This document shows positions 9,709 to 49,811 of a stretch of DNA of 64,000 nt, piece after piece. Position numbers and translations under genes: made by a program. The notes under the pieces are model-generated. The model did not search any database. It was not told the DNA's origin and saw only the letters and a list, made by a program, of their open reading frames with translations. Origin of the DNA: Elusimicrobiota bacterium. Its GTDB lineage: Bacteria > Elusimicrobiota > Elusimicrobia > UBA1565. The number at the start of each line of letters is the position of its first letter. Position 1 is the stretch's first letter. The DNA lies in NCBI GenBank assembly GCA_016218495.1, contig JACRDU010000155.1, positions 1,171 through 65,170 of the forward strand, in the 5' to 3' direction.

Positions 9709-10916
9709 ACGGCGCGGCCGCGGCCCTGCTCGGGCTGCTCGCGCTGGCCGGACCCGCGCGGGCCGAAGGGCCCGCCGTGCTCTCAGGCCTCGACGTCCTC
9801 GCGGACAAGGGCTTCGCGGACTTCAAGGGCAAGCGCGTGGGCCTCATCACGAACCAGACCGGCCGCGACCGGTCGGGCAGGACCACGGTCCAGGTCCTCG
9901 CCAACGCGACGGACGTGACCCTCTCGGCGATGTTCTCGCCCGAGCATGGATTCACCGGCGTCGTCGAGGACACCGCCGTCGTCTCCGGGACCTTCGCCCT
10001 CCCCGACGGCCGCACCATCCCCCTCTACAGCCTCTACGGCGCGACCCGGGCCCCGACGGCGGCCATGCTCAAGGACCTCGACGTCCTGGTCTTCGACATC
10101 CAGGACATCGGCGCCCGCTTCTACACCTACTCGACGACGATGGCGATGGCGATGGAGGCGGCGGCCGCCGCCGGCATCGACTTCGTCGTGCTCGACCGCC
10201 CGAATCCCATCAACGGGGAGACGGTCGAAGGCCCCGTCCTGTCCACGGGCATCCGCTCCTTCATCGCATATCTCCCGGTCCCGGTGCGCCACGGCATGAC
10301 GATGGGGGAGCTCGCCCGTCTGCACAACATCACCTCCAGCCTCGGCGCCAAGCTCACCGTCGTGCCGCTCAAGGGCTGGCGGCGCGCGATGTGGTACGAC
10401 CAGACCGGCCTGCCCTGGACCCGGCCCTCGCCCAACATGCCGGACCTGGCCTCCGCCGCCCTCTATCCCGGCATCGCCTGCTTCGAGGCCTCCAGCCTGT
10501 CGGTCGGCCGGGGGACCGAAGCCCCGTTCCAATGGGTCGGCGCGCCGGGGCTGAAGGCCGAGGCGGTCGTCGCCAAGCTCAACGCCGCCCGCCTGCCTGG
10601 CATCGAGTTCCGGGCTGAACAGGCGAGTCCGTCCAAACCCCCCTTCGCGGGAGAGAAGGTCCCCGGGGTCCGCATGCGGGTGAACGACCGCGACGCCGTG
10701 CGCCCTCTGGCCGTCTTCGCCCACCTGGCCGCCGCCCTGCGCGACCAGGGGGGACCGGCCTTCTCCTTCGACATGGAGCGCCTGCTCCTCTTCGTCGGCA
10801 TGCCGCGCTTCGCCGAACTCTATCTTTCGGGAGCCGCCGCCCCCGAGCTGGAAAAATCCCTCCAAGAGGGAGCCGCAGCCTTCAAGACGGGGCGGGCTGT
10901 GTTCCTCCTCTATTGA
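9705..10916 (+). CDS. namZ: Exo-beta-N-acetylmuramidase NamZ (DUF1343) family
   Basis: TTG 9705 overlaps the mltA stop; signal peptide; VGLITNQTG, FSPEHG, FDIQDIGARFYTY, LDRPNP, RHGMTMGE, PSPNMP, SVGRGT. Confidence 0.9.
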   Translation: MNGAAAALLGLLALAGPARAEGPAVLSGLDVLADKGFADFKGKRVGLITNQTGRDRSGRTTVQVLANATDVTLSAMFSPEHGFTGVVEDTAVVSGTFALPDGRTIPLYSLYGATRAPTAAMLKDLDVLVFDIQDIGARFYTYSTTMAMAMEAAAAAGIDFVVLDRPNPINGETVEGPVLSTGIRSFIAYLPVPVRHGMTMGELARLHNITSSLGAKLTVVPLKGWRRAMWYDQTGLPWTRPSPNMPDLASAALYPGIACFEASSLSVGRGTEAPFQWVGAPGLKAEAVVAKLNAARLPGIEFRAEQASPSKPPFAGEKVPGVRMRVNDRDAVRPLAVFAHLAAALRDQGGPAFSFDMERLLLFVGMPRFAELYLSGAAAPELEKSLQEGAAAFKTGRAVFLLY

Positions 10917-28589: not shown

Positions 28590-31280
28590 GTGATACTAAG
28601 GAAGGGCGTTGCGGCCCTGCTGGCCTTGCTGCTGGCGGCGCCGCCGGCCTCTGCCCAGCGCATCGCCGCCCCCATCCTCGCCCCCGTCTTGCCGGGCGCC
28701 TCCATAGTCCTTCCGGCGCCGGTGCTGACCACTCCATTGGGCGCGGCTGCGACCCTGCCGACGCTGTCCGCCCCGTCCCTGTCCGCACCCCGAGGGGTCG
28801 TCGGACCGACGGCCGTCGCCGCTCCCGCCGCCGTGGCCGCCCCGGCGCTAGCGCGGGCCGCAGCCCTGCCCGCGCGGGCCGGGCTACAGGCGCTGGGCGA
28901 CGGCCTGGCCCGCGCCCAGGCCTCCGGTCGCTCCGCGGCGCCCGTCCTGGCTCAGGTCTTCGACGCCTCGGCCCCGCGCTCGGGCTCCCCGGCCTCGGCC
29001 GTCGTCGCCGCCTCCATCGGCGGCCGCACCCTGTCCGGCCTCCCGCGCTCGTTGGCCGCGCTCAAGGAGCTGCGCCTGGGCTCCTACAACGTCCTCAACC
29101 TCTTCGAAAAGGTCGGCAAGCACGTGCCGGACCCCGACCATCCCGGGCAAATGAAGCAGGTCTCCGGCCGCACGGCAAAGGAGGAATGGCAGCTGCGCGA
29201 ACAGGCCCGCGCCATCCTGGAGAGCGGACTCGACGTCGTCGCCCTGCAGGAGGTCGAGAACATCGCGGCGCTCGACGACTTCAACGCGCGCTACCTGGGC
29301 GGGGCCTACAAGACCCTGCTCAGCGAGGGCAACGACCCGCGCGGCATCGACGTGGCCTTCCTGGTTAAGCGCGACTTGCCGCTGACGTTGGAGCAGCGCA
29401 GCCACAAGGACGAGGAGTGGGAGGACCCCACCCAGGGCGGCGCGCGCGCCAAGCTCTTCTCGCGCGACCTGACGGCGCTGGTCGTCCGGGCCGAGGGCTC
29501 GGCGCAGCCGCTCTTCATCCTGCTTGGCACGCACATGAAGTCCAAGCGCGACCGCCCCGGCGACCCGGAGTCGGCCGTCCAGCGCCGCGCCCAGGCCCGC
29601 CGCACCGCCGAGGTCGTGCAGCGCTACCGGGCCGAGTTCGGCGCCGACGCCCGCCTGATGCTGGCCGGGGACTTCAACGGCGACCTCAACGCCGAGGACA
29701 CCTTCGCCCCGCTCTGGGAGGCCGGGCTCACCAACAGCCTGGACCTGGGCGAGCGCCCGGTGCCGCTCGAAGAGCGCGTCACCCACACCTACCACCCTAA
29801 GGATGGGCCGCGCCACGCCGCCCAGATGGACGGCATTTTGGTCTCGGACAGCCTGAAGGGCCTGGTCGCCGGCGCTGAGGTCTACCGCTACAAGGACGAG
29901 GGCGGGACGCCCAAGCCCATTCCCCAGACCTACGATGAGCGCAGCCGCAACCCTTCCGACCATTTCCCGCTGGTGATGACGCTGCGGGTCGCCCCGCTGC
30001 TCAAGGCCGCGCCGGCCCCGCCCGCTCCGGCCGTCCCGGCCCCGGCCGGCGAGCGCCGCCTGGCCGCGCTGGGCCTGGCATGGAGCTTCCTCGCCATCGC
30101 GTCGATGTACATCGTCCTGCCGGTGCGCAGCGCCTTCCTGCTCACCCAGTTCGGGCCCTCCGTCATGCCCTGGGTCTTCATGGCCAGCGCCGCCTTCACC
30201 GGCGCCGCGGCCTGGGCCTACGCGCGCTTCGCCGGCCTGCCGCGCGCCAAGCTCATCGGCGGCACCTTGGCCGTGCTGGCCGCCAGCCTGACCGGCTGGT
30301 GGGCCCTGGCCCCGCTGGCGATGGCCTCGGGCCCGCTGTCCTTCGCCTTCTCGATGTGGGCCGATGCCTTCTCCATCATGTCGGTGACCCTGTTCTGGAC
30401 CTACGCGAACGACCGCTTCAAAGGCGAGGCCGCGAAGCGCTGGTTCGGCCCTTTCGCCGCGGCCGGAGCGCTGGGCGGGATGGCCGGTTCGGCCGCCACC
30501 AAGGCGCTCGTGACCACCCTCGGCACGACGCCGCTGCTCCTCATCGGCGCGGCGGTCTTCGCCGCCATCGGCGGCGTCTTCGCCCTGATGGAGCGCCAGA
30601 CGCTGCCGGAGGCCTCCGAGCCGGCCCCCGCCCTCCAGGCGCCGGCCAAGCCGGACTCCAGCCCGTGGGCCGTGGCCAAGGCCGTGCTGGCCTCGCCGTT
30701 CCTGCTCGCGCTGACCGCCGTGGTCTTCTTCGAGCGCCTGGTCCCGGACTTCTCGTACTACCTCTTCTCCGTCAGCGCCCAGGCCGCCTATCCGACCCGT
30801 GAGGCGATGGCGGCCTTCCTGGCCTCCTTCGGCTTCTGGCAGAGCCTGGCCTCCCTCGTCACCAGCGCGGCCCTGACCGGCTGGGTTCTCAAGAAGCTGG
30901 GCGTAGGCAAGACCCTGCTCGGCGCGCCGCTGGCCAACCTGCTGGGCTTCGTCGGCTTCGCCCTGTCGCCGACCTTGGGCGCTGCGGTGGCTGCCAACGG
31001 CGTGGAGGGCTGGCAGCGATACGGCTGGTTCAAGGCCGCCAAGGAGACCACTTACTCGGCGGCCGACAAGGGCCTGCTCTACCAGGTGAAGGCCTACGTC
31101 GAGATGTTCGTCTACCGCTTCGCGCGCGGCGTGGCCGGCCTCATCCTGCTGCTGCTGACCGGCAGCTCGTTTATGGGCTGGAGCCCCTCCGCCGTAGCCT
31201 GGGCGGCCGTCCCGCTGGGTCTGGCCTGGGTCTACGCCGCCTGGAAACTCGGCGCCGAGTACAAGAAGCGCGCCGGTTAG
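28590..31280 (+). CDS. Fusion: signal peptide/Ala-Pro leader + EEP endonuclease/exonuclease/phosphatase + Npt/TLC-like nucleotide translocase (12-TM MFS)
   Basis: EEP motifs SYNVLNLF, ALQEVEN, NDPRGIDVAFL, HMKSK, LAGDFN, MDGILV, PSDHFP. MFS part YIVLPVRSAFL, FWTYANDRF...AKRWFG, RYGWFKAAKE, YQVKAYVEMFVYRFARG. Confidence 0.85.
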   Translation: MILRKGVAALLALLLAAPPASAQRIAAPILAPVLPGASIVLPAPVLTTPLGAAATLPTLSAPSLSAPRGVVGPTAVAAPAAVAAPALARAAALPARAGLQALGDGLARAQASGRSAAPVLAQVFDASAPRSGSPASAVVAASIGGRTLSGLPRSLAALKELRLGSYNVLNLFEKVGKHVPDPDHPGQMKQVSGRTAKEEWQLREQARAILESGLDVVALQEVENIAALDDFNARYLGGAYKTLLSEGNDPRGIDVAFLVKRDLPLTLEQRSHKDEEWEDPTQGGARAKLFSRDLTALVVRAEGSAQPLFILLGTHMKSKRDRPGDPESAVQRRAQARRTAEVVQRYRAEFGADARLMLAGDFNGDLNAEDTFAPLWEAGLTNSLDLGERPVPLEERVTHTYHPKDGPRHAAQMDGILVSDSLKGLVAGAEVYRYKDEGGTPKPIPQTYDERSRNPSDHFPLVMTLRVAPLLKAAPAPPAPAVPAPAGERRLAALGLAWSFLAIASMYIVLPVRSAFLLTQFGPSVMPWVFMASAAFTGAAAWAYARFAGLPRAKLIGGTLAVLAASLTGWWALAPLAMASGPLSFAFSMWADAFSIMSVTLFWTYANDRFKGEAAKRWFGPFAAAGALGGMAGSAATKALVTTLGTTPLLLIGAAVFAAIGGVFALMERQTLPEASEPAPALQAPAKPDSSPWAVAKAVLASPFLLALTAVVFFERLVPDFSYYLFSVSAQAAYPTREAMAAFLASFGFWQSLASLVTSAALTGWVLKKLGVGKTLLGAPLANLLGFVGFALSPTLGAAVAANGVEGWQRYGWFKAAKETTYSAADKGLLYQVKAYVEMFVYRFARGVAGLILLLLTGSSFMGWSPSAVAWAAVPLGLAWVYAAWKLGAEYKKRAG

Positions 31281-35266: not shown

Positions 35267-38200
35267 TCAGCGGCCGAAGAGGCCGTAGTCCGTCATGACG
35301 CGCAGCACCTCGGCCACGCTCCAGGCCTGAGAGCGGGTGCCGCCGCGGTTCTGCGCGCGCGCCGCGCGGGCCATCGCCGGGCCGAGGCCGGCCCGGTCCT
35401 CGAGGGAGAACTCCCTGAACAGCGCCTCGGAGGACCCGCCGTCGAAGACTTCGGGCAGAGAGCCCTCCGTGGAGGCGGCCAGGAACTCGGCCAGCGGGGT
35501 CAGCACGCCGCGCAGCTCGGCGCTGATTCGCTCGGAGGACCAGCCCTGGGCGCGGCGCACCTTGACCAGGGCATCGAGGTAGGGGCCCATCAGCCAGGGC
35601 CAGACCGTGCCCTGGTGGTAGGCCTGGTCCTTCTCCAGCGGGGGCTTCGCGGTATCGTAACGCCCCTGGTAGCGCGGGTCGCGGTAGGAGAGGGTGCGCA
35701 TCCCGTAGGGCGTCAGCAGGTCGCGCGTGGCGGCCAGCACGACGGCCGCCTGCCGCTCGGGGCTCAGGAGGTCGAGGCCGTGGCTGACGGCCACGAGCAT
35801 GTTCGGGCGCACCGCTTCGCCGTGCGGGTCGCCCTCGACCACGTCGCGCAGCGCTCCGCCCGTACCGCCCCAGGCCCGCCGGTTCTCCTCGTTGGCGAAC
35901 CAGAACTTCTTGTTGAAGGACTGTTTGACCCGCTCGGCCCGGGCGTCGGCCTCGGAGGCGGCCGCGGCGTCCCCGGCCTCGCGCTCCAGCTCGGCGAGGT
36001 AGCGCAGATTCGCGTACCAGAGGGCGTTGATCTCCACCGCCTTGCCGTGGCGCGGGGTCACCGGGCGGTCGCGGCCTTCGGGGTCGGCGTCCATCCAGGT
36101 GGACTGGGCGGGGCTGACGATGAGCCCATCGGAGTCCATGTAGATGCGGTTATAGCGGCCGTAGCGCTGGTAGCCGGTGCCCTCGGCGTAGGCGCGCATC
36201 ACCTTGCGCAGCACCGGCAGCATCTCGGCGGCGAAGGCCGGGTCGCCGGCCTTCTTGACCGCCTGGACGAACCACATCGAGCCGTCCACGGTGTTGTATT
36301 CCGCCGCCGCCCCGCCTCCCGGCAGGCGGTTCGGGATGAGGCCGTCAGCCTCGTGGCGCGCGAAGCCGCGGATGTTCTCGCGCGCCTCGCCGCGGCGCCC
36401 GGTGGAGAGCAGGAGGCCGGGCAGGGAGATGAAGGTGTCGCGGCCCCACTCCTCGAGGAACCAGTCCAGGCTGGCCGCCCAGATCTGGACCCCGCCGCCG
36501 GCGTGCTTCACGAACGAATCCCCCGCCTTGAGGAAGGCGCCCTTCAGCGCGGCCCCCGCGCTCCAGACCTTGCCCGCCAGCACGGCCATCCAGGCCCCCA
36601 GTTGGGCGCGCACGTCCCAGCGCGCACGGCTGCCGTAGTCCGGGTCGGAGGGCAGCGGGATGCGCCAGCGCCAATGCGAGGTGCCGCCCGCCATCTCCTT
36701 GACCGGGAACGGGTCGCCCCATTCGTCGCCCAAGGTGTAGCCGGTGAAGCGCGCGTTGCGCCCCGAACCGGGCTTGCGGCTCTCGGCCAGGAAGCGCCCG
36801 ATGAAGCCGTCGGAGCGCGGGTCGTCGTGGCTGGAGACCTTCTTCCAGTCCCCGTACACCGTCACGAAACCGAAGCGCTCGGCCGCCTCGGCCTTCCCCT
36901 CGAAGGCCTCGGCCAGCGGGAAGGCGCCGCGCTCTGAGAACACCTGCGCCAGGGCCTTCACATAGTCGTCGCCCGGCTCGTCGCCCGACACCATCTGCCC
37001 GTTGCCGAAGTCGTAGGCGAAGTGCAGCGCGTCCACGCGCGCCCCGTCGAAGCCCAGGTCCAGCCAGTGGCGATAGGGCGCCAGCATCGCCGCGTAGCCC
37101 TCGGATTTCGCGCGCCCCCAGTTCCACAGGCCCAGGTCCTTCCAGTCCTCGTTTATCCACTGGTTCTTGATGCCGGGGTTTCGGGTGCGCAGGTCGGTGA
37201 AGACCTCGGGGCGCTTCCAGGCATCCACCGAGTCCTTGCCGCGGAACATCGGTATGTCGAAGAGCACGCGGCCGCCGACGTCGTGGACGGTCGCCAGGGC
37301 CTCCTGGAGCTGGCCATAGGCCAGCCACTGCGCGAACTCGTGCGTCTCCACCGTCTCGCTGAAATCGGCCCGCCCCCGTGCCCCGGCCAGGTCAGCCGGC
37401 GTCCACTGCAGCACCGGCTTGCCCACGGCCTTCGACAGCGCCATGAACTCGGCGTACTCGCCCAGCCAAGCCGCGCTCTCCGCCTTGAAGTCCTCGAAGG
37501 CCCGGCCGCGCTGGGAAGTCCGGTCGAAGGCGCGGTAGGCCGCGCGGGCGACCTCCGCCTCCCGCGCGCGCAAGGCCTCGTAGTCCACGGCCTGCTTCTG
37601 GGACAGGGTCTTGGCCTCGAGCTTGGCGGCCAGCGCCGGGTCGGCCTTCACCTCCGGCACGACCGCCCAGTCCAGGTGGTCCTCGTTGACGGCGAAGAGG
37701 CTGACGGGGGCGTAGGGGCTCTCCCCGCGTACGGCGAAGTGCGGCAGCAGATGGACGACCTTAGCGCCCTGCTTGGCCAGCACGTCGCGGTAGTAGGCGG
37801 CGAAATCGGTGAACTTGCCCACCCCGGGGTCGCCTTTCTCGCGCCGCAGCGAGTAGAGCGGCACGGTGACGCCGGCGTGGGCGGCGGCCGGGTCGCGCCA
37901 CCAGGCGGAGCGGGCCAGGCCCGTGCGCGACAGCCCGCCGGAGCGGCCGTCCACGACGCCGGAGCGCCCGGAGACCTGGCGCCCGCCGTCGAACAGGGCT
38001 CTGAGCGCCGGGGCCGGCGCTTTGGCTACGGCCGGCGCGGCCTCCTTGAGCGAGGCCAGCGGCGTCTCGGCCCGCCCCTGCGCCGGCGCCGACGGGCCGG
38101 CGACGGCCTTGGGGGCGGCGACGGCTGAGGCGGCCGCGGCCCGCGCCGAAGCGGCGGCGGGCACGGCGACGGCAGGGAGGGCGGAAACCGCGACGGTCGG

Positions 38201-38404
38201 GGCGGCCAGCGCCGCGCCGGGCGAAAGGGTCAGCGTCGGCTTGGGCCGGGAGACCGGCGCCAAGCCTCCGACGGAGACAGGCGCGACGGGGACGGTGACG
38301 GGGGCGGAGACGACCTGCGCGAGGACGGGAGAGACGGGCTGGAGGAGCAGGCACAGCGACAGGAGGGCCGCGCCGATTCGGCCCAACAGGATTTCTCGCC
38401 TCAC
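35267..38404 (-). CDS. Fusion: signal peptide/Ala-Pro leader + GH77 4-alpha-glucanotransferase-like + amylo-alpha-1,6-glucosidase (glycogen debranching C-terminal domain)
   Basis: GH77-like GVTVPLYSLR, GVGKF, SPYAPVSLFA, FDIP, RVDALH; GDE-like WGRDTFISLPGL, GLIPN, YNTVDGSMWF, TWMDA, TPRHGKAVEINALWY, RPN, YHQGTVWPWL, QAWSVAE. Confidence 0.88.
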   Translation of the reverse strand: MRREILLGRIGAALLSLCLLLQPVSPVLAQVVSAPVTVPVAPVSVGGLAPVSRPKPTLTLSPGAALAAPTVAVSALPAVAVPAAASARAAAASAVAAPKAVAGPSAPAQGRAETPLASLKEAAPAVAKAPAPALRALFDGGRQVSGRSGVVDGRSGGLSRTGLARSAWWRDPAAAHAGVTVPLYSLRREKGDPGVGKFTDFAAYYRDVLAKQGAKVVHLLPHFAVRGESPYAPVSLFAVNEDHLDWAVVPEVKADPALAAKLEAKTLSQKQAVDYEALRAREAEVARAAYRAFDRTSQRGRAFEDFKAESAAWLGEYAEFMALSKAVGKPVLQWTPADLAGARGRADFSETVETHEFAQWLAYGQLQEALATVHDVGGRVLFDIPMFRGKDSVDAWKRPEVFTDLRTRNPGIKNQWINEDWKDLGLWNWGRAKSEGYAAMLAPYRHWLDLGFDGARVDALHFAYDFGNGQMVSGDEPGDDYVKALAQVFSERGAFPLAEAFEGKAEAAERFGFVTVYGDWKKVSSHDDPRSDGFIGRFLAESRKPGSGRNARFTGYTLGDEWGDPFPVKEMAGGTSHWRWRIPLPSDPDYGSRARWDVRAQLGAWMAVLAGKVWSAGAALKGAFLKAGDSFVKHAGGGVQIWAASLDWFLEEWGRDTFISLPGLLLSTGRRGEARENIRGFARHEADGLIPNRLPGGGAAAEYNTVDGSMWFVQAVKKAGDPAFAAEMLPVLRKVMRAYAEGTGYQRYGRYNRIYMDSDGLIVSPAQSTWMDADPEGRDRPVTPRHGKAVEINALWYANLRYLAELEREAGDAAAASEADARAERVKQSFNKKFWFANEENRRAWGGTGGALRDVVEGDPHGEAVRPNMLVAVSHGLDLLSPERQAAVVLAATRDLLTPYGMRTLSYRDPRYQGRYDTAKPPLEKDQAYHQGTVWPWLMGPYLDALVKVRRAQGWSSERISAELRGVLTPLAEFLAASTEGSLPEVFDGGSSEALFREFSLEDRAGLGPAMARAARAQNRGGTRSQAWSVAEVLRVMTDYGLFGR

Positions 38405-40129: not shown

Positions 40130-40795
40130 CTAGGCGCCGAGCAGGGCCGCATAGAGCCCCTGCAGGTCCCATTGGAAGTCGCGCAGCCCTTCGGGCTTGG
40201 CGCGCAAACCGCTCTTGAAGGCGATGAGCCAGTCGCCCTTGGCCTGCACCGTCCAGCCCCCCCGGGAGGCCAGGAAGCGCCGCGGCGCGGCGCCGAAGAA
40301 CCCGCGGATGCGCTCCTCGTCCGTGCCGCGCAGCCGGTAGCCCTTCGAGAATTCCGGGTCTTCGCCGAAGTCGATGTCTTGGCCGCCGAACCAGGAGGCC
40401 AGCTTGTCCGAGAACTGCTCGGGCGCGGCGGTGAAGACCGGCAGCCCCCGCCCCGGGAGGTGGAACGCGCCGACGCTCTGGGTCCAGGTCGCCTGGTTCT
40501 TCCCGCTGCCGACGGTATAGCGATACTCGAATATGACGTACTCGCGGCGCTCGCTCCAGAACACGTTCTCCGCGCGCCGGCTGTGCCCCGCCGTGAAGAG
40601 CGAGAGCTCGCGCAGTTCCCCAGGCAGGCGGTCGAGGTCGTCGTCGCTAGGGCTGAGGCCCAGGGCGACGGCGGCCGCGCGCAGGCGCTCGACGCGCCGC
40701 TTCTCCAGATGCCGGTGGATGCCCCAGACGGCCAGGCAGGCCGGGACCAGGAGCAGGTACGGGTTCTGGAGGGCGAACGCCGCGGCGTCCATCAT
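40130..40795 (-). CDS. Hypothetical protein with N-terminal TM segment
   Basis: TM segment then ...FEYRYTVGSGKN...GQDIDFGEDPEFSKGY; TATACT -10 just upstream (start may be 40792). Confidence 0.75.
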   Translation of the reverse strand: MMDAAAFALQNPYLLLVPACLAVWGIHRHLEKRRVERLRAAAVALGLSPSDDDLDRLPGELRELSLFTAGHSRRAENVFWSERREYVIFEYRYTVGSGKNQATWTQSVGAFHLPGRGLPVFTAAPEQFSDKLASWFGGQDIDFGEDPEFSKGYRLRGTDEERIRGFFGAAPRRFLASRGGWTVQAKGDWLIAFKSGLRAKPEGLRDFQWDLQGLYAALLGA

Positions 40796-40881: not shown

Positions 40882-41253
40882 ATGCAGCTGACACTCGACG
40901 GGAAGCGGATCTCCTCTGACGCCAGGCCGGAGGACGCGCGCGGCGTGCTGGAGAGGCTGCAGCGCGCGCGGCGCGGGGAGCTCGAACTCAAGGACGGGGC
41001 GCGGACCATGAGCCTCCAGCTCGCAGCCGGCGTCTGGTTCCTCGAGGCCGGCGAGGGCTCCACCCTGCGCTATGGGATGCTGGTGACGCCGCTGCAGGCC
41101 GTCGGAGCGCTCAACGCCTTCCTCAAAGGAGGCCTGCCGATGCCGGACGGCTGGGGCGCGGGGGCGGCCGCCGCCGAGGGGTTCGAATCGGTCGTCGTCG
41201 GAGACGCCGCCCACCCCGACTGCCCGCTGTGCCGTATGATGGGCGTTCAGTGA
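40882..41253 (+). CDS. Hypothetical protein with C-terminal HPDCPLC motif
   Basis: GGAGG RBS; 123 aa; CxxC near the C-terminus. Confidence 0.6.
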   Translation: MQLTLDGKRISSDARPEDARGVLERLQRARRGELELKDGARTMSLQLAAGVWFLEAGEGSTLRYGMLVTPLQAVGALNAFLKGGLPMPDGWGAGAAAAEGFESVVVGDAAHPDCPLCRMMGVQ

Positions 41254-42290
41254 GCGGGCGCCGCCTCGGGGGAGATTGCGCCGAACTCGGGGTCCTTGAA
41301 GAAGCTCGTGAAGTAGACATAGCTGCCCCACGACAGCACGAGGACGCTGCCGGTCAGAATCGCGTAGAACTTCTGGTAGCCGAAGGCGGCGAACAGGCCG
41401 AACTGCATCGTCAGGCTGGTGACCTGGTAGAGGTGCATCATCGTGGGATGGCTGATGACCCCGGCGCGGCGCATCTGGTTGACCGCGGGGACGAGCGGGC
41501 CGCCGGAGATCATGCCCTGCAGGATGTTGATGAAGACCAGCGCCAGCCCTTTGGGCGTCATCACCAGCGGGTTCTCGCCGAGGGGGCCCAGCACCAGGCG
41601 GTTGAGGAACTCGAAGCCGCAGAGCTGGAAGTAGACGAACACCATGTCGCCGACCGGCGCCTTGAAGACCCTGACCATCCCGGTCATCCGGCCCAGGAAC
41701 TTCATATAGGTCTGCCCGAAGACGGTGAATACCGCGTCCTGGACCTGGTACCAAGAGGTCGAGATGACGGCCCTCACCACCGGCAGCTCTCCCGCGTTGA
41801 CGGCCTTCATCACGAAGAAGAGCCGGATGGCCAGGTTGAAGGTGAAGGTCTTGGTCGCCAGCCAGGTGTAATCCTGACGATTGGGCCTCGTCATCGACTC
41901 CACGAAGAGCGCCTTCATGTTCTTGAGGTAGGAAGAATCGAAGGCGAACCTCGGTGCCGGGCCGGCGTTCTCCTCTGCGGACTTAGTTGAGCTCCCCACC
42001 TTGAAGAACAGCATCTCGCCGCCGTGCTGCTTCTTCGCCGCTCGGAACATCGCCCGGTCCTCGGGAGACACCTCGGCCGGCGCGGAGCTGCCCATCCCCT
42101 CGGAATAGGTCTTGGTCGGCCAGACATAGACCAGCGCGCGGCCGCCGGAGCCCGTCACCGGGAACTCCGCGCCCGGGGCCCACTCCTTGAAAGGGGCGCC
42201 GCCCTTGCCCGCCTTATAGACGCGGCGCGGCCCCGACGGGGACTCCTCGTCCACGGCCACGATGACCAGCGAGTTCGCGTCGGGCTTCAT
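41247..42290 (-). CDS. Polytopic membrane protein of unknown family (no export leader); distant paralog of 46681..48282
   Basis: Several hydrophobic helices; last gene of the amylase operon; motif-level similarity to the first gene. Confidence 0.75.
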   Translation of the reverse strand: MKPDANSLVIVAVDEESPSGPRRVYKAGKGGAPFKEWAPGAEFPVTGSGGRALVYVWPTKTYSEGMGSSAPAEVSPEDRAMFRAAKKQHGGEMLFFKVGSSTKSAEENAGPAPRFAFDSSYLKNMKALFVESMTRPNRQDYTWLATKTFTFNLAIRLFFVMKAVNAGELPVVRAVISTSWYQVQDAVFTVFGQTYMKFLGRMTGMVRVFKAPVGDMVFVYFQLCGFEFLNRLVLGPLGENPLVMTPKGLALVFINILQGMISGGPLVPAVNQMRRAGVISHPTMMHLYQVTSLTMQFGLFAAFGYQKFYAILTGSVLVLSWGSYVYFTSFFKDPEFGAISPEAAPAH

Positions 42291-44669
42291 CTATAGCTCC
42301 AGGAGGACATGGTCGTAGATCCGCGGGATCTTCGTCCCCGCGCCCTCCAGCGTGTAAAAGCTCCACTCTTCCTTCTTGGCCGCCACCGCGCGCAGCTCCC
42401 CGAGGTAGCCGTCCCAGGTCGACACGAAGGCGCGCGTGCCGGAAAAATCCGCCACCGAGGCGAAATAGGAGGCCGAGAAGGTGAACTCCACCATGTTCTT
42501 GTCCTTGTCGGCGCGGGCGGCGATGTCCCCGACCAACGGCTTGCCGTAGGATTCCGGCCCCGAATCGGCCGCCCCGAAGGAGCGCATGTCCCAGCCGTAG
42601 AGCAGGAAGCCGGCGTTGAACTCGAAGTCGGAGCGGGCGTAGCCGAGCTTCGGGAAGAAGCGCTTGCCCGGGACGCCCGGGAAATCGAAGTAGACCGAGA
42701 AATAGACGTGGTCGAAGCCATGCGGCGGATTCCATTCGTCCGTCACATCGGTCATCTTGAAGCGCAGCTTCAGGTCCCGTCCCGAGGTCAGCGCGTCCAC
42801 GCGTTCCATCGAGAGCTGGCCGCGATAGCTGGGGTCAGCCGGAGGGCGCACGGTGCCGTCGAGGCCGCCCTTCTGGGCCTGCGGGACCTTGGAACGCACC
42901 AGCAGCTTGTAAGGGTTCTTCACCGTCAGCGTCACCGGCGCCGACAGCGCCAGCCCGGCCTTGCTCTTGGCCAGCAGGGTCAGGTCGTGGCGGCCGTTGC
43001 CCAGGCGCGTCGTGTCGAGCTCCACGCAGCCCGCGGAAGGGTCGGACAGCGGCACGCGCCGCCCATAGTCGCCGTTGTCGAGGAGGACGAGCTCGCAGGC
43101 CCGGTCCTCGAGCCTGTAGTCCAGCGGGACGGTGCCCTTGACCAGGCGCCTGGCCGGGGCGACCAAGGCCAGGCCGTGCGCGTCCGCCGGGACAAAGGCG
43201 CCCTCCAGCACGAGGAATTCGCCCGGCTCGAGCAGGAAGACCCCGGGGACGTCCTTGCGCCCGTGGGAGGACAGCGCCACGGACAGGCCCTCCCCCCCCA
43301 GGTCGCAGGCCACGGGGTTGGGCGCGGTGTTGAAGACGGACACCAGGCGGACGTCCTTGTGCGTGCTCGACCAGGCCAGGAGGCCGGGGCCGTGGCTGGT
43401 GCGCTCGACGGCCAGCTTGCCGCGGGTCAGCGCGGGGTGGGCCTTGCGGAAAACGACCAGGGAGCGGATGAAGACGGCCAGCGGGCTCTCCAGGTCGAAG
43501 GCTTCGTCCCGGAACATGTCCTCGCGGGCGCGGGTCAGGGCGGCCTCGGTGCCGTAGTAGACGCAGGGCAGGCCGGGCAGGGTGAAGAGGGCGGCCAGCG
43601 ACTGCTTTACCGTGGGCAGGTCGGCCCGAGCGCACATGCGCTCGATGTCGTGGTTGTCGAGGAAGTTGACCCACAGCGGCCGGTTCGCGCGCGGGGCCTT
43701 GAGGACCTTGCGCAGGCGTTCGGTGGGCGCCTTGCGGAAGAAGACCTGGGTCAGCGCCTCGTTGAGCGGCAGGTCCACCGCCCCGTCGAGGCGCGGCCGG
43801 CCCGGCCCCTTAATGTAGTCGTTGATGGCCTTCGTGTCGTATGACCAGACCTCGCCGAAGACGAAGAAGTCGCGCTTGCCCTTCTTGGCGGCGTGCGGCT
43901 TCACTCCGTCGGCGTCGTACAGGAAGCGCTCGTAGAACTCCTCGGGGGTGTAGTAGACCGTGTCGACCCGGAATCCGTCGATGCCGGCCTCGTCCATCCA
44001 GAACTTGTAGACCTCCTTGAAGCGCTGCACGGCCAGGGGGCTCTTCAAATTGATGTCGTCGAGGTCCCCCATCGACCAGGTCAGGGTCTGCTCGCGCGAC
44101 TTGAAGTCGGAGATGTTCGGCGTGAAGTTGTAGACGGCCGCGCGCTTGTGCTCGGGGTTGTTGGGGTCGTTGAGCGAGAACACCGGGTCCTTGGGCGCCA
44201 TCAGCGCCCCGTCGGCCAGCTTCCAGTTGAGCTCCGGGCGGGCCGGGTCGAAGCCCTGGCCCTCCACGGTGAAGAAGTTGCCCGTGTGGTTGACCACGAT
44301 GTCCTGGATGACCTTGAGCCCCAGAGCGTGGGCCCGCGCGACGAACGTCTTGTAGTCCGCCAGCGTGCCGAAGTGGGGGTCCACAGCCGTGAAGTCGTAG
44401 GCCCAGTAGCCGTGGAAGCCCCGGGTCTTGATGTAGGGATTGACCCACTGGTTGTGCACCGGCGGGGTGATCCACACCGCGTCGTAGCCCATCCCCTTTA
44501 TGAAAGGGAGGCGTTCGGTCAGGCCCTTGAGGTCCCCGCCGTGGAAGGCGTCGTCATCGTCCGGGTCGTACTCGCCCTTGCCGAAGTCGTCGTTGGAGCG
44601 GTCGCCGTTGGCGAAGCGGTCGATGAGGACCAGATAGACGACCTTGTCGCGCCAAGCGTCGGGCTTCAC
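42291..44669 (-). CDS. GH13 alpha-amylase family (no signal peptide) with C-terminal DOMON/CBM-like domain
   Basis: DRFANGD, GGDLKG, HGYW, DIVVNH, DGFRVDT, FGEVW, FLDNHD, YYGTE; C-terminal WNPPHGFDHV...STWD. Confidence 0.92.
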   Translation of the reverse strand: MKPDAWRDKVVYLVLIDRFANGDRSNDDFGKGEYDPDDDDAFHGGDLKGLTERLPFIKGMGYDAVWITPPVHNQWVNPYIKTRGFHGYWAYDFTAVDPHFGTLADYKTFVARAHALGLKVIQDIVVNHTGNFFTVEGQGFDPARPELNWKLADGALMAPKDPVFSLNDPNNPEHKRAAVYNFTPNISDFKSREQTLTWSMGDLDDINLKSPLAVQRFKEVYKFWMDEAGIDGFRVDTVYYTPEEFYERFLYDADGVKPHAAKKGKRDFFVFGEVWSYDTKAINDYIKGPGRPRLDGAVDLPLNEALTQVFFRKAPTERLRKVLKAPRANRPLWVNFLDNHDIERMCARADLPTVKQSLAALFTLPGLPCVYYGTEAALTRAREDMFRDEAFDLESPLAVFIRSLVVFRKAHPALTRGKLAVERTSHGPGLLAWSSTHKDVRLVSVFNTAPNPVACDLGGEGLSVALSSHGRKDVPGVFLLEPGEFLVLEGAFVPADAHGLALVAPARRLVKGTVPLDYRLEDRACELVLLDNGDYGRRVPLSDPSAGCVELDTTRLGNGRHDLTLLAKSKAGLALSAPVTLTVKNPYKLLVRSKVPQAQKGGLDGTVRPPADPSYRGQLSMERVDALTSGRDLKLRFKMTDVTDEWNPPHGFDHVYFSVYFDFPGVPGKRFFPKLGYARSDFEFNAGFLLYGWDMRSFGAADSGPESYGKPLVGDIAARADKDKNMVEFTFSASYFASVADFSGTRAFVSTWDGYLGELRAVAAKKEEWSFYTLEGAGTKIPRIYDHVLLEL

Positions 44670-46684
44670 TTACGGACCAGCACGCGTACGCCGCGGGCGG
44701 GGACCCGCACCGTGACCTTGGAGCCGCCCTCGGCGCCGGGATGGGTGGCGACGCCGTAGCCGGCGTCGAGCGCGTCGGACAGCGCGGTGCCGGCCGGGGT
44801 CAGGCCGTTGTCGACGAACATCTCCGCCTCGCGGGCCTCGTCGGCCGTGTTCATCACGACGACGACCTCTTGCCCCTGGTAGATGCGGCTGAAGGCGTAG
44901 ATGCCGGAGTTGTATGGGTCGGACCAGCGTACATGCTGCTCTCCGCGGCGCAGCGCCGGCAGGTCCCGGCGCACCTTCATCAACTGCTGGAGCAGCTTGA
45001 AGCTGGCCGCGCCGGTATCGAACTTGTCGCCCTTGGAGCTCTCGGTCTTGTACTGCCCCTCGGCGAACATGTCCTCGCGGTTCTGAGGGTCGGCCGGGCG
45101 GTCTCCGCCCTCGGGGGTCAGGCGTCCTTCGAGCTGGCGGAAGGCCTGCTCGGCGCCGTAGTAGACTAGGGGGATGCCGGTGGAGAAGAGCAGGAAGGCG
45201 AAGGCGGCCTTGAGCACGCCGTCGGACTCGCCGTCGCGCAGGAAACGGTAGGTGTCGTGGTTGTCGATGAAGCGGATGATGCGCCCGAGGGCCGCGCCGA
45301 GCGCGTCGCGGGCCCGCACGAAGCTCTCCTCGAGCTGGCGGGTCGGGGCCTTGCCGTGCAGCGCGAACTGCTGGCGCCGGAACTCCGGGTAGTTGTAGCC
45401 GGAGTCCGTGCCCAGCCCCAGGTCGCCGACGATGTCGGAGTCGACCCCGGTGGAGTTCTCGCCCAGGACCAGGAAGTTCTTCTTGCCCAGGCCCCCCGCG
45501 TACTCCTTGACCTCCCGGGAGAAGCGCCGCACGAAGTCGGGGTCCATGTGGCGGATGGCGTCGAGCCGCATCCCGTCCACGTCGGTCTCCTTCAGCCACC
45601 ACTGCGTGACCTTGATGAGCTTCGAGCGCGTCGCGTCGCGCTCGGTGTCCCAGTGCCGGTAGTTGGGCGGGAAATCGCCGTGCGTGGCTTGGTCGTGGTT
45701 GTTCCAATCGTCGATGACGCCGCGCCGGGTGAAGTCCTCGCCGGTCATGTCCTCGGGGCCGAGCAGCTCGGTCCACTCCCCGATCTCCTTGCGGCCCGCG
45801 CCCTGGTACTTGGAGCCGTCCTTGTACTCGAAGACCGGTCCGGTGTGGTTGGCCACCACGTCCAGGATGACCTTGATGCCGCGCGCGTGGGCCTCGCGAA
45901 CCATCTCCTTGTAGTCATCCATCGTGCCCAGATGCGGGTCCACGGCCAGGAGCTGGGTCGGCGCGTAGCCGTGGTAGGCCTCCGGGATGCCCATCGTCAC
46001 CGGCGAGAGGATGATGGCGCTGACGCCCAGGGTCTTGAGGTAGTCGAGCCGCGCGGTCACGCCCTTGATGTCGCCGCCGTGGCGCGAAACCCCGCTCTTG
46101 GGGTCGCCCAGAGGGATGGCGCGCTTGGAGCGCGAGAAGCGGTCGGTCATCACCGAGTAGACGACCTCGTCGCGCCAGTCCTCGGGAGAGGCGAAGTACT
46201 TGCGCCCGGACTCCGGGGTCAGGCTCAGCTCGGCGACGGTGCGCGGGGTGCCGGCCGGCGGCTCCAGCCGGCGCATGGCCTCCGGGGTCGGGGTGGTCCG
46301 GGCCTGGACGGCGGAGAGCTGCTGGGTGGGGCCGAGGTCGGGGACGGCCTTGGCCTTCCCCTCGGCCGCCGCGCGCCCCTGCTCCTCCTTCGCCGCGACG
46401 GCCTTGGCCGGGGTCGGAGCGGCCAGAGCGGCCTGGGCCGCCTGCGCCTGCGCCCGCGCCCGCGGCTGGACGGCGGGCGTCGGCAAGGCGAGGCTGGGAG
46501 CGCCGAGGCTGGGCGCCGCCAGGGACGGGGCGGACAAGGTCGGCCCCAGCGACGGCTTGACCAGGCCCGCGCCGACAGGGCCGACGGCGGGGGCGGCCTC
46601 GACGACGGGCGCGACGGTCTTGACCTGGGCCGCCGAGGGCGACGCCAGCGCGAGAGAGAGGAGGATGGATAGAAGCCGCGTCAT
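44666..46684 (-). CDS. GH13 alpha-amylase family with signal peptide/Ala-Pro leader
   Basis: True start ATG 46684 (ATGA overlap), MTRLLSILLSLALASPSAAQ; SPEDWRDEVVY, GGDIKG, YHGY, DVVANH, DGMRLDA, LGE, FIDNHD. Confidence 0.92.
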   Translation of the reverse strand: MTRLLSILLSLALASPSAAQVKTVAPVVEAAPAVGPVGAGLVKPSLGPTLSAPSLAAPSLGAPSLALPTPAVQPRARAQAQAAQAALAAPTPAKAVAAKEEQGRAAAEGKAKAVPDLGPTQQLSAVQARTTPTPEAMRRLEPPAGTPRTVAELSLTPESGRKYFASPEDWRDEVVYSVMTDRFSRSKRAIPLGDPKSGVSRHGGDIKGVTARLDYLKTLGVSAIILSPVTMGIPEAYHGYAPTQLLAVDPHLGTMDDYKEMVREAHARGIKVILDVVANHTGPVFEYKDGSKYQGAGRKEIGEWTELLGPEDMTGEDFTRRGVIDDWNNHDQATHGDFPPNYRHWDTERDATRSKLIKVTQWWLKETDVDGMRLDAIRHMDPDFVRRFSREVKEYAGGLGKKNFLVLGENSTGVDSDIVGDLGLGTDSGYNYPEFRRQQFALHGKAPTRQLEESFVRARDALGAALGRIIRFIDNHDTYRFLRDGESDGVLKAAFAFLLFSTGIPLVYYGAEQAFRQLEGRLTPEGGDRPADPQNREDMFAEGQYKTESSKGDKFDTGAASFKLLQQLMKVRRDLPALRRGEQHVRWSDPYNSGIYAFSRIYQGQEVVVVMNTADEAREAEMFVDNGLTPAGTALSDALDAGYGVATHPGAEGGSKVTVRVPARGVRVLVRK

Positions 46685-48282
46685 TTCTTCTTCCGGATCC
46701 CGAAGATGCCCAGCACCGCGTCCAGCGCCTGCCGCAGGGCCGACGGCCGCGGCGCGGCGTCCGTCATCGAATACACCGACTTGAAATCGCCCGTCTCGGC
46801 CACGGCGGCGTCGACGGCCACGGCGATGGGCCGGGCCTTCGCGCGCTGTCCGAGTATATACAACGAAATGTCCACGCTCTGCTGGATGACGAAGAGGGTC
46901 CAGAACACCGTCATCGAGCCCGAGGCGAAGAAGGTCCCGGCCAGCAGGAAGAAGAGGTCGCGGCCCTGCTGGATGTAGGAGCGGGTGCGCCGCGAGATGC
47001 GGCCCTTGTCGTAGAGGCCGTTCACCCCGGCGTAGCCGAGCGTGCCGAAGAAGGTTCCCAACACGGTGGCGATGCCCATGTCGCGCCAATAGGCCAGCGC
47101 CCAGGGCGGGACCGTGCCGGCGATGACGGCGTAGGAGATCAGCCGGAAGAGCGCCGAGGTCGACTGCATGTAGATGAAGTTGAAGACGGTCTGGTAGCCC
47201 AGCCCGCGCTGGCGGCTGATGAGGTTCTGGAAGTTCTGCCAGGTGTTGATCCAGACCCCGTGGAAGGCCTGCAGGGCCAGCGAGAAGCCCAGCGCCGCGG
47301 CGAAGGCGACCGGGTGGAGGGGCAGGAAGAGCTTCGCCCACCACATCGCCGAGAGGACGAAGGCCGGGCCCTTGGAGAGTACGCCGCCCCAGAACTCGGC
47401 CTGGGTCGGCTTCGTATACGCGGCCTTGAAGGTGCGGGCCAGGAACGCGGCCTCGCGGAAGGGGGCGGTGAGGAAGCGCAGGAAGCGGTTGCTGGGGGCC
47501 GACTTCATGTCCCCGGCCTTAGACTCCTGCTTGGCCGCCGTCAGCGCGATGCGCTCGATGGCCACCGGCGCGGTGATTCCGGCCTCGGCCAGGGCCTCCT
47601 TGACGGCCTCGGCGCCGGCTTCGGACAGGGCGCCTCCCGCCACGATGCGTACCTGGCCCGAGGCGTTCAAAGCCTTCGCGTAAGCCGGGTCGGCGGCGAG
47701 GCGGGCCCGCAGAGAAGGGAGGGTGACCGCGGCGGGCTCGGACCCGTGCTGGGTCAGGAATACCTTGACCGTCGAGCCGTCGAAGGCCTGGTTGAGGGCG
47801 GCGGTCTGAGCGGCGCCCCTCATCGCCCGGCCCAGCACCTGCAGCCGGGAGGCCGCCGTCGCCGGGGCCGCGGACTCGGGAGAATCCATGGCGCGGGCGG
47901 CCGCCGCGATGGCGGCGGCGGCCGCCTTCGGAGCGGCCAGGGCCGCGGGCAGGGCCGACGGCGCAGAAATATTAGCCGCCGCCGCGAGAGGAATCGCGGC
48001 GGCGGCAGGGACGGCCTGACCGGGGACCGTGGTGTGGACCGTGGGCAAGGCCAAAGATGGGGCGACGGACAGGCTGGGGGCGCTCAGCGGCGCGTTCAGG
48101 CTGACGCTTTGGGGCAGGACCGTGGGCGCCGCGACGGCGGGGGTGCCCGGCGCGCCGGCCTTGACCGGGGCGGTGCGCAGCTGCGCCCAGGCCTCGGAAA
48201 CAAGAAGTCCCTGCTCGTTGAGCAGGGACATGGTCAGGAGGGCCGCCGCGAGCTTGCGTCCGCGGTTTCCGAGGAGTTTCAC
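46681..48282 (-). CDS. Signal peptide/Ala-Pro leader + polytopic membrane domain of unknown family
   Basis: Leader ...SEAWAQ...LSAPSL...LNQAFDG; C-terminal hydrophobic helices. Start GTG 48282 or 48291. Confidence 0.78.
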   Translation of the reverse strand: MKLLGNRGRKLAAALLTMSLLNEQGLLVSEAWAQLRTAPVKAGAPGTPAVAAPTVLPQSVSLNAPLSAPSLSVAPSLALPTVHTTVPGQAVPAAAAIPLAAAANISAPSALPAALAAPKAAAAAIAAAARAMDSPESAAPATAASRLQVLGRAMRGAAQTAALNQAFDGSTVKVFLTQHGSEPAAVTLPSLRARLAADPAYAKALNASGQVRIVAGGALSEAGAEAVKEALAEAGITAPVAIERIALTAAKQESKAGDMKSAPSNRFLRFLTAPFREAAFLARTFKAAYTKPTQAEFWGGVLSKGPAFVLSAMWWAKLFLPLHPVAFAAALGFSLALQAFHGVWINTWQNFQNLISRQRGLGYQTVFNFIYMQSTSALFRLISYAVIAGTVPPWALAYWRDMGIATVLGTFFGTLGYAGVNGLYDKGRISRRTRSYIQQGRDLFFLLAGTFFASGSMTVFWTLFVIQQSVDISLYILGQRAKARPIAVAVDAAVAETGDFKSVYSMTDAAPRPSALRQALDAVLGIFGIRKKK

Positions 48283-48386
48283 CGCCGCCACCCCTTCATG
48301 CTCAGAGTGTAGTCCCGCTCATATATGGAGGCATGGGCCGGGAAGTCCTACCCCGCCCGGACAGAGGGCCTATCCCCCCCTGGGCC

Positions 48387-49811
48387 CTATGACGCGGGGA
48401 TGACGGCATCGTCCCCGAAGCGGTGGGCCCAGGACAGCGTCACCCCGGCGCCGACCAGCGGCATCCAGTGCCAGCCGAAAGGCAGGAGGCCGATGCCCTC
48501 CAGCACCATCGCCGCCGCGCAGACCGCCGTCCCCAGCGCGAGACCGGACAGCGCCGAGCGCGAGGCGGAGCGCGGGCCGAAGACGCCGTACAAGACGAGG
48601 CCGAGGACGGGCCCGTAGGCGGGGGTGCCCAGACGCGCCGCCCAAGGCGCGGCCCAGGGCAGGGCCCCGAAAGTCCAGGCGGCGAGAGCGCAGGCCGCAG
48701 CGGCCGCGCAGACCGTCCAACGCGCGCCGGCCAGACGGACGCGGCCCGGGCGGAGGTCGGCGAGGAAGGCCGCCGCGGACCCGACCAGCGGCAGGTCGAC
48801 CACGGCCGCGAACAGCGCGGCCACGAGCAGCGCGCGCCACCCCAACGACATGTTTTGCACGGCGAAATGCGGGAGGATGGACTCGGCCCGGTCGGGCAAG
48901 GCCATCGCCGTATGCTGTTCGTAGAACGCATAGAGCGCGGCGCCGAGGCCCAAAAGGGCGACCAGCAAGGCGAACGAAGCGAAGACCGAACCCAGCAGAC
49001 CCCGGCGCCCGTCGCCTTCGCGCGCGTTGAGCGCGGCCTGCATCATCTCCTGGTCGGCGGCGAAGGCGGCCAGGGAGCCGAGGAAGCCTCCGGCCAGGGC
49101 GGCCGGACCCCAGGAACGGTCGAACGCGATGCCCAGCAGGAACGGGCCGTCCGGCATCCAGCGCCATACGTCGAGGCGGTGCCCCGCGTCGGCAAGACGC
49201 AGCGCCTCCAGGACTCCCCCGTCGACCCCGGCCGCGGCGTACAGAGCGAACGCCGTCCCCGCCGCGATCAGGAACAGGGCCTGGGCCGCGCCCGCGAAGA
49301 CGACGGCCCGCAGGCCGCCCCACGCGGCCATCCCCGCCGCCGAGACTGCGACCAGGCCAATCCAGCCCGCGCGCGTGCCGCCGGCCAGGGCCGCCAAAGT
49401 GGCGCAGGCCGCCATGAGGCGCACGCCGGTGACGCCCAGGCGCGCGGCCAGGAAGGCGCCCGCCGCCCAACGCCGCGCCCCCGGCCCGTAGCGCTTCTCG
49501 AGCCAACCGTAGGCGGTGGCGCCCGCATCCGCCCGAATCGCCGGCAGCAAGACGACGGCCAGGAAGGCCCGAGCCGCCGCCGAGCCGGCGAAGAACTGCA
49601 GGTACCGCCAGTCCTCGCGGAAAGCCGAGGCGCTGACCCCGAGCAAGGTCATCGCGCTGGCCTCCGCCGCGGCGAACCACAGCGCGGCGGCCCAGGGCGG
49701 GAGGTCTCCGCCCGCCGTGAAGAAATCCCGCTCGTCCTTGGCGGGGCCCAGGACCCAGAGCAGGGACGCCAGGACGGCGAGGACGAGGAAGACGGCGAAC
49801 ATCCCCATCAT
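48387..49811 (-). CDS. Sodium:solute symporter family protein
   Basis: DFFTAGGDLPPWAAALWFAAAEASAMT, YLQFFAG, TAYGWLEKRYG, GGLRAVVF, ADQEMMQ. Confidence 0.88.
   Translation of the reverse strand: MMGMFAVFLVLAVLASLLWVLGPAKDERDFFTAGGDLPPWAAALWFAAAEASAMTLLGVSASAFREDWRYLQFFAGSAAARAFLAVVLLPAIRADAGATAYGWLEKRYGPGARRWAAGAFLAARLGVTGVRLMAACATLAALAGGTRAGWIGLVAVSAAGMAAWGGLRAVVFAGAAQALFLIAAGTAFALYAAAGVDGGVLEALRLADAGHRLDVWRWMPDGPFLLGIAFDRSWGPAALAGGFLGSLAAFAADQEMMQAALNAREGDGRRGLLGSVFASFALLVALLGLGAALYAFYEQHTAMALPDRAESILPHFAVQNMSLGWRALLVAALFAAVVDLPLVGSAAAFLADLRPGRVRLAGARWTVCAAAAACALAAWTFGALPWAAPWAARLGTPAYGPVLGLVLYGVFGPRSASRSALSGLALGTAVCAAAMVLEGIGLLPFGWHWMPLVGAGVTLSWAHRFGDDAVIPAS

Follow-up and report, generated by a model that had tools for sequence, protein, structure and literature searches.

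Two paralogous six-helix proteins of an undescribed family encoded with GH13 amylases in Elusimicrobiota

In the maltose/maltodextrin system of Escherichia coli, alpha-glucan enzymes are encoded together with membrane components (MalF/MalG, MalK, MalE, LamB; MalS, MalZ, MalQ), and the cyclodextrin/maltodextrin route combines an extracellular GH13 enzyme, an ATP-binding cassette (ABC) transporter and a cytoplasmic cyclomaltodextrinase or neopullulanase. The lipase-specific foldases Lif/LimA of Pseudomonas and Burkholderia, which are encoded beside their enzyme, begin with a hydrophobic segment, joined by a Pro/Ala-rich linker to an all-helical domain. Here we describe an operon of four genes (g1 to g4) in a stretch of 64,000 nucleotides from an uncultured Elusimicrobiota bacterium (contig JACRDU010000155.1), referred to as the window, in which two GH13 alpha-amylase genes (g2 and g3) are flanked by genes for two helical proteins (g1 and g4). 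These are members of one previously undescribed protein family with six helices, marginal hydrophobicity and many invariant polar and aromatic residues, and the module that they form with the amylases is restricted to one order of Elusimicrobiota. The window has a G+C content of about 70%, and the named close relatives of its proteins are all labelled as Elusimicrobia or Elusimicrobiota metagenome-assembled genomes (MAGs).

The four-gene operon and its helical paralogs

A preliminary description, made from the letters of the window alone, had reported four coupled or abutting minus-strand genes with a leader on the first two only. The open reading frames (ORFs) confirm this at the coordinates that it gave, as do the junction sequences: the g1 stop and the g2 start overlap in ATGA, the g2 stop and the GTG start of g3 overlap in GTGA, and the TAG stop of g3 abuts the ATG of g4 with no spacer. 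The genes g1 to g4 are translationally coupled. Their extents and domains are listed below, with profile hidden Markov model (HMM) and AlphaFold2 (AF2) results where these define a feature.

46681..48282, minus strand: g1, 533 amino acids (aa) from the GTG at 48282; leader module, small alpha/beta domain and six-helix domain (g1-type)
47788..48282, minus strand: leader module of g1, from sequence; leader HMM i-E 2.7e-6, AF2 pLDDT below 50
47551..47778, minus strand: small alpha/beta domain of g1, residues ~169-244; AF2 strands and helices at 172-244, pLDDT 90-97
46828..47499, minus strand: g1-type helical domain, residues 262-485; six main helices
44666..46684, minus strand: g2, 672 aa; leader module and GH13 alpha-amylase
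45128..46153, minus strand: GH13 catalytic domain of g2; PF00128 Alpha-amylase, 8e-47, 160.9 bits (cut-off 22)
42291..44669, minus strand: g3, 792 aa; GH13 alpha-amylase without leader, with a C-terminal Glucodextran_C-like module
42306..42857, minus strand: Glucodextran_C-like C-terminal module of g3; PF09985, 7.7e-10
41247..42290, minus strand: g4, 347 aa; N-terminal beta-rich domain (1-117) and g4-type helical domain (134-335), no leader
41286..41891, minus strand: g4-type helical domain; AF2 helices, invariant columns in the family alignment

The g1 product is identical to the database protein P0121; an alternative GTG start lies upstream at 48291 and would give 536 aa. Its small alpha/beta domain is conserved across the g1 family alignment (A1). 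In the AF2 models g1 and g4 share one architecture, a small alpha/beta or beta-rich N-terminal domain followed by six main helices, with a mean pLDDT of 80.8 for g4 and values above 90 for the C-terminal domain of g1, of which the leader is disordered. The family was not recognised in the preliminary description, and searches of Pfam, NCBIfam, PDB folds and the ESM Atlas have left it without a name. Neither protein matches any Pfam or NCBIfam family at E up to 0.01, and no recurrent family match appears at E up to 5 among 42 g4-type and 31 g1-type aligned members. Foldseek against the PDB gave best E values of 0.11 (g1) and 0.34 (g4), and exhaustive searches with VIA-align aligned only the last three helices, with generic helical bundles (g1, best Z 8.3, root-mean-square deviation 3.2, 84 aligned residues; g4, best Z 6.4, 4.0, 90 aligned). 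The ESM Atlas held no usable match for g4 and, for g1, only an unnamed cluster with a score of 0.75. Literature searched on Elusimicrobia amylase or glycogen and on groundwater or starch does not describe the module, nor do the passages found in the principal groundwater Elusimicrobia paper (bioRxiv 10.1101/765248).

This family is of considerable size. An exhaustive profile search yielded 112 representative clusters (at 50% identity) for the g1-type domain, and g4 has 198 homologs, the named ones all being Elusimicrobia hypotheticals; the g4-type family comprises at least 198 clusters at 90% identity. The genome of the window itself encodes one g1 and one g4. Conserved motifs of the g1-type domain include TKPT, FHGxWxNTWxNFQ, YQTxFNxxYxQ, GLNxLYxKG and IQQxRD. 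Among 42 g4-type sequences, 79 columns are invariant within about 200 residues; by hand count, 31 of these are Q, N, Y, W, D, R, K or H, and D, E, H and R are invariant inside helices. An internal repeat of three plus three helices was sought in both domains and not found (P 0.37 and 0.19).

Some g1-type proteins carry further segments. Nine of them (P0181, P0198, P0151, P0177, P0183, P0184, P0186, P0200 and P0201, alignment A5) continue at the C-terminus with a conserved region of some 350 residues that contains the motifs GVFK (invariant K), DAWxGNxDR..N..W and FGD, which by eye resembles HipA or PI3/4-kinases; the sole support for this likeness is one weak Pfam HipA_2 match (E 0.085) in one of the nine, a profile search of the PDB having given low-complexity matches only and phmmer nothing. 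The 330-aa g1-type protein P0142 begins, by eye, like the large subunit of an [NiFe]-hydrogenase and possibly reflects a chimeric assembly; a Pfam tag precomputed for it (PF27537) was not reported by our local Pfam scan.

The preliminary description had aligned the two helical domains by eye, and profile comparison upholds this similarity. BLASTP of g1 against g4 returned nothing (best E 1.2), and hhalign with narrow family profiles gave no convincing match for the helical domain alone (E 0.029, a score reached by 4 of 100 column shuffles) or for the N-terminal domains alone (E 0.07). With N-terminal and helical domains together, the narrow profiles aligned colinearly over 250 columns (P 3e-4, 0 of 100 shuffles), and the full-length run reached E 0.0015. 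Broad profiles, built from 101 g1-type and 127 g4-type sequences, aligned over nearly the whole domain (188 of ~224 columns; probability 85.5%, E 5.7e-6) with a score of 44.5, compared with 18.1 for a reversed profile and maxima of 22.6 in 100 column shuffles and 27.4 in 100 shuffles of 20-column blocks, so that 0 of 200 shuffles reached the score under a null that may be lenient for helical hydrophobic proteins. This alignment pairs the same motifs as the one made by eye. Based on the significance of the broad profiles, and because a g4-type domain occupies the leader-bearing position at seven loci (see below), we regard the two helical domains as homologous and take their paralogy as established.

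Both amylases belong to GH13. The match of g3 to PF00128 (2.8e-50, 172.3 bits, same cut-off) is comparable to that of g2; the two share 30% identity (E 2e-47), and both score against cyclomaltodextrinase, neopullulanase and cyclodextrin glucanotransferase entries. Their closest solved relatives are alpha-amylases (4e2o for g2, 3e-54; 43wj_A for g3, 9.5e-96), and below the top amylase matches the solved relatives of g3 include many cyclodextrin glucanotransferases. The g3 family alignment (A4) has a mean column identity of 67% and the motifs GFRVD, GEVW and NHD, with D236, E273 and D341 invariant in 24 sequences; GMRLD, GEN and NHD can be read from the g2 sequence. We take these motifs to be GH13 regions II, III and IV with the catalytic Asp, Glu and Asp. 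The His usual after region II is a Tyr in the g3 family. A complex prediction of g3 residues 400-792 with g4 scored 0.00, which speaks neither for nor against binding.

Recurrence of the module and neighbouring genes

Gene linkage was followed at 40 loci obtained from a scan of species-representative genomes, which are kin and not independent samples. A g3-type gene ends directly before g4 at 37 of the loci, a g2-type gene is present at 31 and a g1-type gene at 24. A leader-bearing helical gene of either type is found at 30 loci (31 with L038, whose own match is that gene), including a second, leader-bearing g4-type gene at 6 (7 with L038), and the complete four-gene set is present at 28. Twelve loci are incomplete: at eight of them a contig breaks off within the four genes (L008, L010, L014, L022, L024, L031, L035 and L038), at L011, L020 and L021 both g2 and g1 are absent from the DNA examined, and L039 has g4 alone, beside unrelated genes. 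At seven loci (L001, L002, L004, L006, L027, L028 and L038) the leader-bearing position is filled by a g4-type instead of a g1-type domain, about 60% identical to g4 and sharing its charged loops. Either type of domain can occur behind the leader, and a leader-bearing and a leaderless helical copy almost always co-occur beside two amylases.

Two fusion proteins extend this association. P0157 consists of a leader, the g1 domains, a Pro-rich linker and a g2-like GH13 enzyme, and P0160 of a leader, a GH13-like enzyme and the g1 domains; each represents one cluster and is known from protein records, not DNA. Longer, fused forms of g4 were searched for and not found, which is weak evidence. The adjacency of g3-type genes and these fusions bear out the expectation of the preliminary description that homologs of the helical proteins are associated with alpha-glucan genes.

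Weak matches of the g4 profile in four genomes led to a third, divergent branch of the helical family, encoded by ORFs of 445-729 aa with an N-terminal domain of their own. At all four loci retrieved, the gene directly follows two GH13 genes, and at L061 and L064 a g1-type gene lies beside it. The matches are as follows.

L061, 5455-5784: third branch of the helical family
L062, 4382-5086: third branch of the helical family
L063, 4795-5118 and 10583-10915: third branch of the helical family, two copies
L064, 2060-2398: third branch of the helical family

One of the two copies at L063 has a signal-like start and extra hydrophobic segments. The solitary g4 homolog of L039, full-length and with 45% identity, lies at 9176-11047, on a 7.3-Mb contig of a MAG labelled Deltaproteobacteria, where its neighbours are a TonB-dependent receptor, a tryptophan 2,3-dioxygenase and an ATPase of the type III secretion or flagellar type.

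Of 101 genomes of the order to which the window belongs, 45 have the module (28 of the 59 of high quality), as do 5 of a sample of 151 taken across the phylum. As it is absent from the other 56 genomes of the order, it is accessory.

Around the operon, two neighbouring genes concern sugars or their possible uptake.

48387..49811, minus strand: sodium:solute symporter (SSS) family gene, ending about 100 nucleotides upstream of g1
35267..38404, minus strand: leader-bearing fusion of GH77 4-alpha-glucanotransferase and GDE_C amylo-1,6-glucosidase, 1045 aa; GDE_C 7.3e-92, GH77 1.6e-36

The symporter gene is possibly part of the same transcript as g1 to g4; it occurs at 2 of the 40 related loci. 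The GH77-GDE_C fusion gene lies about 3 kb downstream of g4 and is present at 6 of the 40 loci and also in L061. It combines both activities of a eukaryote-style glycogen debranching enzyme, GH77 standing in for the transferase of GH13 type. The minus strand also carries, immediately downstream of g4, a 221-aa ORF (40130-40795) without Pfam or NCBIfam match; contig C13 of this genome encodes a paralog of it with 33% identity. Other conserved neighbours reflect synteny at clade level only: adenosine deaminase at 17, an M1 peptidase at 13 and a GT1 glycosyltransferase at 10 of the 40 loci. A promoter scan gave two promoter-like matches, both on the plus strand and neither serving the operon, and terminator-like sites occurred at chance level.

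Leader, membrane and competing explanations

The products of g1, g2 and the GH77-GDE_C gene begin like signal peptides, with a basic n-region, an h-region of 10-13 residues and the sites AWA|Q (g1), SAA|Q (g2) and VLA|Q (GH77-GDE_C). After the AxA|Q site follow Q[VLF][RVK][ST]APV, SAPSL..LP, poly-Ala and FDG, and the whole module spans about 120-170 residues; in g1 the order is LRTAPV, APSL..LPT, poly-Ala and a final ..AFDG. Both g1 and g2 have an Ala/Pro-rich stretch after the signal-like segment, and g3 and g4 begin directly with their domains. A leader HMM, which also matches g2 (i-E 5.6e-5), identified 29 ORFs in the 4.15-Mb draft genome; having been trained on this genome, it recovered just 3 leaders from the 40 foreign loci and is too narrow for counts elsewhere. 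Twenty of the 29 were scanned for Pfam domains, with the following cargo.

8 of 20: cargo needing ATP or an N-in start (a giant ClpB-like AAA+ protein, PPK2, an ATP-grasp protein, a full ABC exporter and four major facilitator superfamily (MFS) proteins)
2 of 20: periplasm-type proteases (HtrA-like, S41+PDZ)
4 of 20: ambiguous (PLD, two M48, TPR-VWA-DUF58)
6 of 20: without Pfam match

In the MFS protein L057 there is no extra helix between leader or linker and the first transmembrane helix, and a motif-A-like loop follows helix 2, which places the linker on the cytoplasmic face of the transporter. Basic residues just after the cleavage site hinder Sec export in E. coli; K or R is found at +2 to +6 after AxA|Q in 17 of 26 leaders, and also in g1 (R at +3) and g2 (K at +3). 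An 896-aa protein of the window (28590-31277, plus strand), one of the 29, joins the leader to an endonuclease/exonuclease/phosphatase domain and an MFS-type domain, the latter with a weak match to the TLC ATP/ADP-translocase family (2.1e-5) that falls below the family's own threshold in number of stretches.

The helices of g1 and g4 are intermediate in hydrophobicity between the SSS symporter and the soluble enzymes of the window. The best three Kyte-Doolittle windows of 19 residues score 1.74, 1.41 and 1.32 in g4 and 1.74, 1.60 and 1.38 in g1, the top windows of the two spanning 1.74-1.31, compared with 2.65, 2.28 and 2.17 down to 1.49 in the symporter and 1.79-0.98 in the GH13 enzymes, the soluble enzymes having one isolated window of 1.5-1.8. 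Judged from these profiles, membrane embedding of g1 and g4 is likely but not certain. Segments rich in K and R occupy equivalent loops in the g1-type and g4-type families, on the side of the linker and N-terminal domain, and their alternation follows a consistent N-in, C-in pattern.

The preliminary description had proposed one exported and one resident enzyme-membrane pair. This division is doubtful, because the same leader stands on 29 ORFs that include MFS, ABC, AAA+, PPK2 and ATP-grasp proteins, eight of the 20 scanned cargos being ATP-using or N-in; the K/R loops of g1 and g4, moreover, both lie on the linker side. The suggested extraction of glycogen-derived sugars from another compartment or cell finds no support.

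We tentatively favour, at somewhat less than an even chance, a conserved module for the processing of alpha-glucan (glycogen, starch or maltodextrin), in which the helical pair serves as a conduit or dock in the cytoplasmic membrane and the leader as a tether. Both paralogs would be inserted in the same orientation, with K/R-rich loops, N-terminal domains and leader linker all on the cytoplasmic side, and would most likely form a g1-g4 heterodimer, as in paralogous permease pairs. Alpha-glucan oligosaccharides may pass through this pair or dock on it. The amylases would be held at its cytoplasmic face, g3 by being made together with g4, and g2 through a tether at its own N-terminus or through fusion to g1, and passing sugar chains could be trapped through immediate hydrolysis. 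The leader would then be a lineage-specific membrane tether and not an export signal. The channel of the preliminary description is likewise putative. Gene coupling, homology, GH13 linkage, interchangeable domains, fusions, loop charges and the range of leader-bearing cargos all speak for this explanation, and the polar and aromatic residues among the invariant columns of the g4-type domain would suit contact with sugars.

Several observations weigh against this explanation. No similarity of g1 or g4 to a known transporter fold was found with Foldseek or VIA-align, and their helices, being less hydrophobic than those of the symporter, may belong to a peripheral or soluble domain. The symporter just upstream could be the sugar carrier instead. 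In all textbook respects the leader looks like a cleaved Sec signal peptide, and it also precedes two proteases of normally periplasmic types. The g4 homolog of L039 stands alone, with no GH13 gene within 10 kb, and the module is missing from more than half of the genomes of the order, as counted above; the possible leniency of the shuffle null bears on the paralogy itself.

These features of the leader fit a rival explanation, true Sec export, in line with the preliminary description. In this case g1 and g2 would act beyond the cytoplasmic membrane and g3 and g4 on its cytoplasmic side as a two-step relay of amylases and channels, with g1 placed either in an outer bilayer, its positive face turned to the periplasm, or in the inner membrane in an orientation opposite to that of g4. 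We consider this rather unlikely, although it has the canonical n-h-c structure and the HtrA-like and S41+PDZ proteases on its side. GH13 amylases with signal peptides are usually exported, secreted GH13 amylases being the rule elsewhere; in P0157 and P0160 a single leader precedes a g1 domain that has a GH13 enzyme on its C-terminal and its N-terminal side, respectively, as would suit an N-out, C-out six-helix domain, and helices of marginal hydrophobicity could allow passage through Sec. An N-out insertion in the inner membrane would, however, put the K/R loops of g1 and of the leader-bearing g4-type proteins in the periplasm, against the positive-inside rule, and the close identity of the latter to g4, with the same charged loops, makes opposite orientations unlikely. 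The scanned cargos that need ATP or an N-in start argue against export as well, and polytopic alpha-helical proteins of the outer membrane are, to our knowledge, almost unknown.

A distinctly unlikely alternative is that the helical proteins transport nothing and are membrane anchors, scaffolds or dedicated Lif-like folding helpers for the adjacent amylases. Their weak hydrophobicity, strict one-to-one adjacency and coupling with GH13 genes, and the fusion of g1-type domains to GH13 would all suit such a role, and the kinase-like extension of nine aligned g1-type proteins suits a general anchoring module. Against it, 79 invariant columns in about 200 residues, many of them polar and within helices, are more typical of a catalytic or translocating site, and both paralogs are retained together at nearly every locus.

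A synthetic role is very unlikely. The module would then make or remodel alpha-glucan with its GH13 enzymes as transglycosylases, and the helical pair would either export what is made or link it to an acceptor in the membrane, or else be a membrane enzyme in its own right. GH13 includes transglycosylases, many cyclodextrin glucanotransferases are among the relatives of g3, and g3 has a module known from cell-surface glucodextranase, yet no signal peptide; invariant D, E, H and R inside helices and a module without ATPase or ion-coupling partner could also be read in this way. But the co-located GH77-GDE_C fusion acts in debranching and degradation, the module has no conserved gene for a glycosyltransferase or for sugar activation (the sole GT1-type neighbour being that found at a quarter of the loci), and no evidence of a product was found. 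Equally improbable is a mirrored relay in which the leader is an export signal and g1 and g4 form one channel in two successive membranes, each with an amylase on its cis side. Amylases, helical transporters (g1, MFS, ABC) and ATP-using enzymes would then all be sent beyond the cytoplasmic membrane, which would imply an ATP-containing outer compartment bounded by a bilayer with alpha-helical transporters, or delivery into another cell.

Significance and comparison with known systems

The helical family, a sizeable one without name, solved fold or assigned function, has a clear genomic partner in GH13 by adjacency, coupling and fusion, and this partnership makes its function directly testable. 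If its members do move alpha-glucan chains, they would be carbohydrate conduits of a new class, operating with no ATPase. Near-identical domains with and without the leader stand side by side in the operon, which offers a clean setting in which to study the Elusimicrobiota leader, and the answer to whether this leader exports or tethers would change the reading of a large share of the predicted secretome of the phylum.

Like the E. coli maltose system, the module encodes alpha-glucan enzymes with probable membrane proteins; as with MalF/MalG, two paralogous subunits are kept together, and one amylase has a signal-type leader and the other does not. It differs from that system in being without ABC ATPase, binding protein and porin, and in the translational coupling of its amylases to the helical proteins, which in two database proteins goes as far as fusion. 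Unlike MalF/MalG, g1 and g4 match neither BPD_transp or another Pfam family nor a solved transporter fold. The cyclodextrin/maltodextrin route likewise has two GH13 enzymes that differ in their leaders. Its ABC transporter contrasts with the candidates here, a helical family of no known match and a nearby SSS symporter, and an extracellular location, such as that of its first enzyme, is in doubt for g2.

The order of parts in g1, and its position beside an enzyme gene, recall the Lif/LimA foldases, a resemblance for which no sequence or fold match was found. Compared with Lif/LimA, hydrophobicity is higher and conservation far stronger in g1 and g4, and a leaderless paralog exists. Finally, the leader resembles Sec signal peptides cleaved by signal peptidase I in its basic n-region, its h-region of 10-13 residues and its AxA|Q site. 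Unlike plain Sec signal peptides, it is part of a conserved module of about 120-170 residues that is also carried by ATP-using enzymes and N-in transporters.

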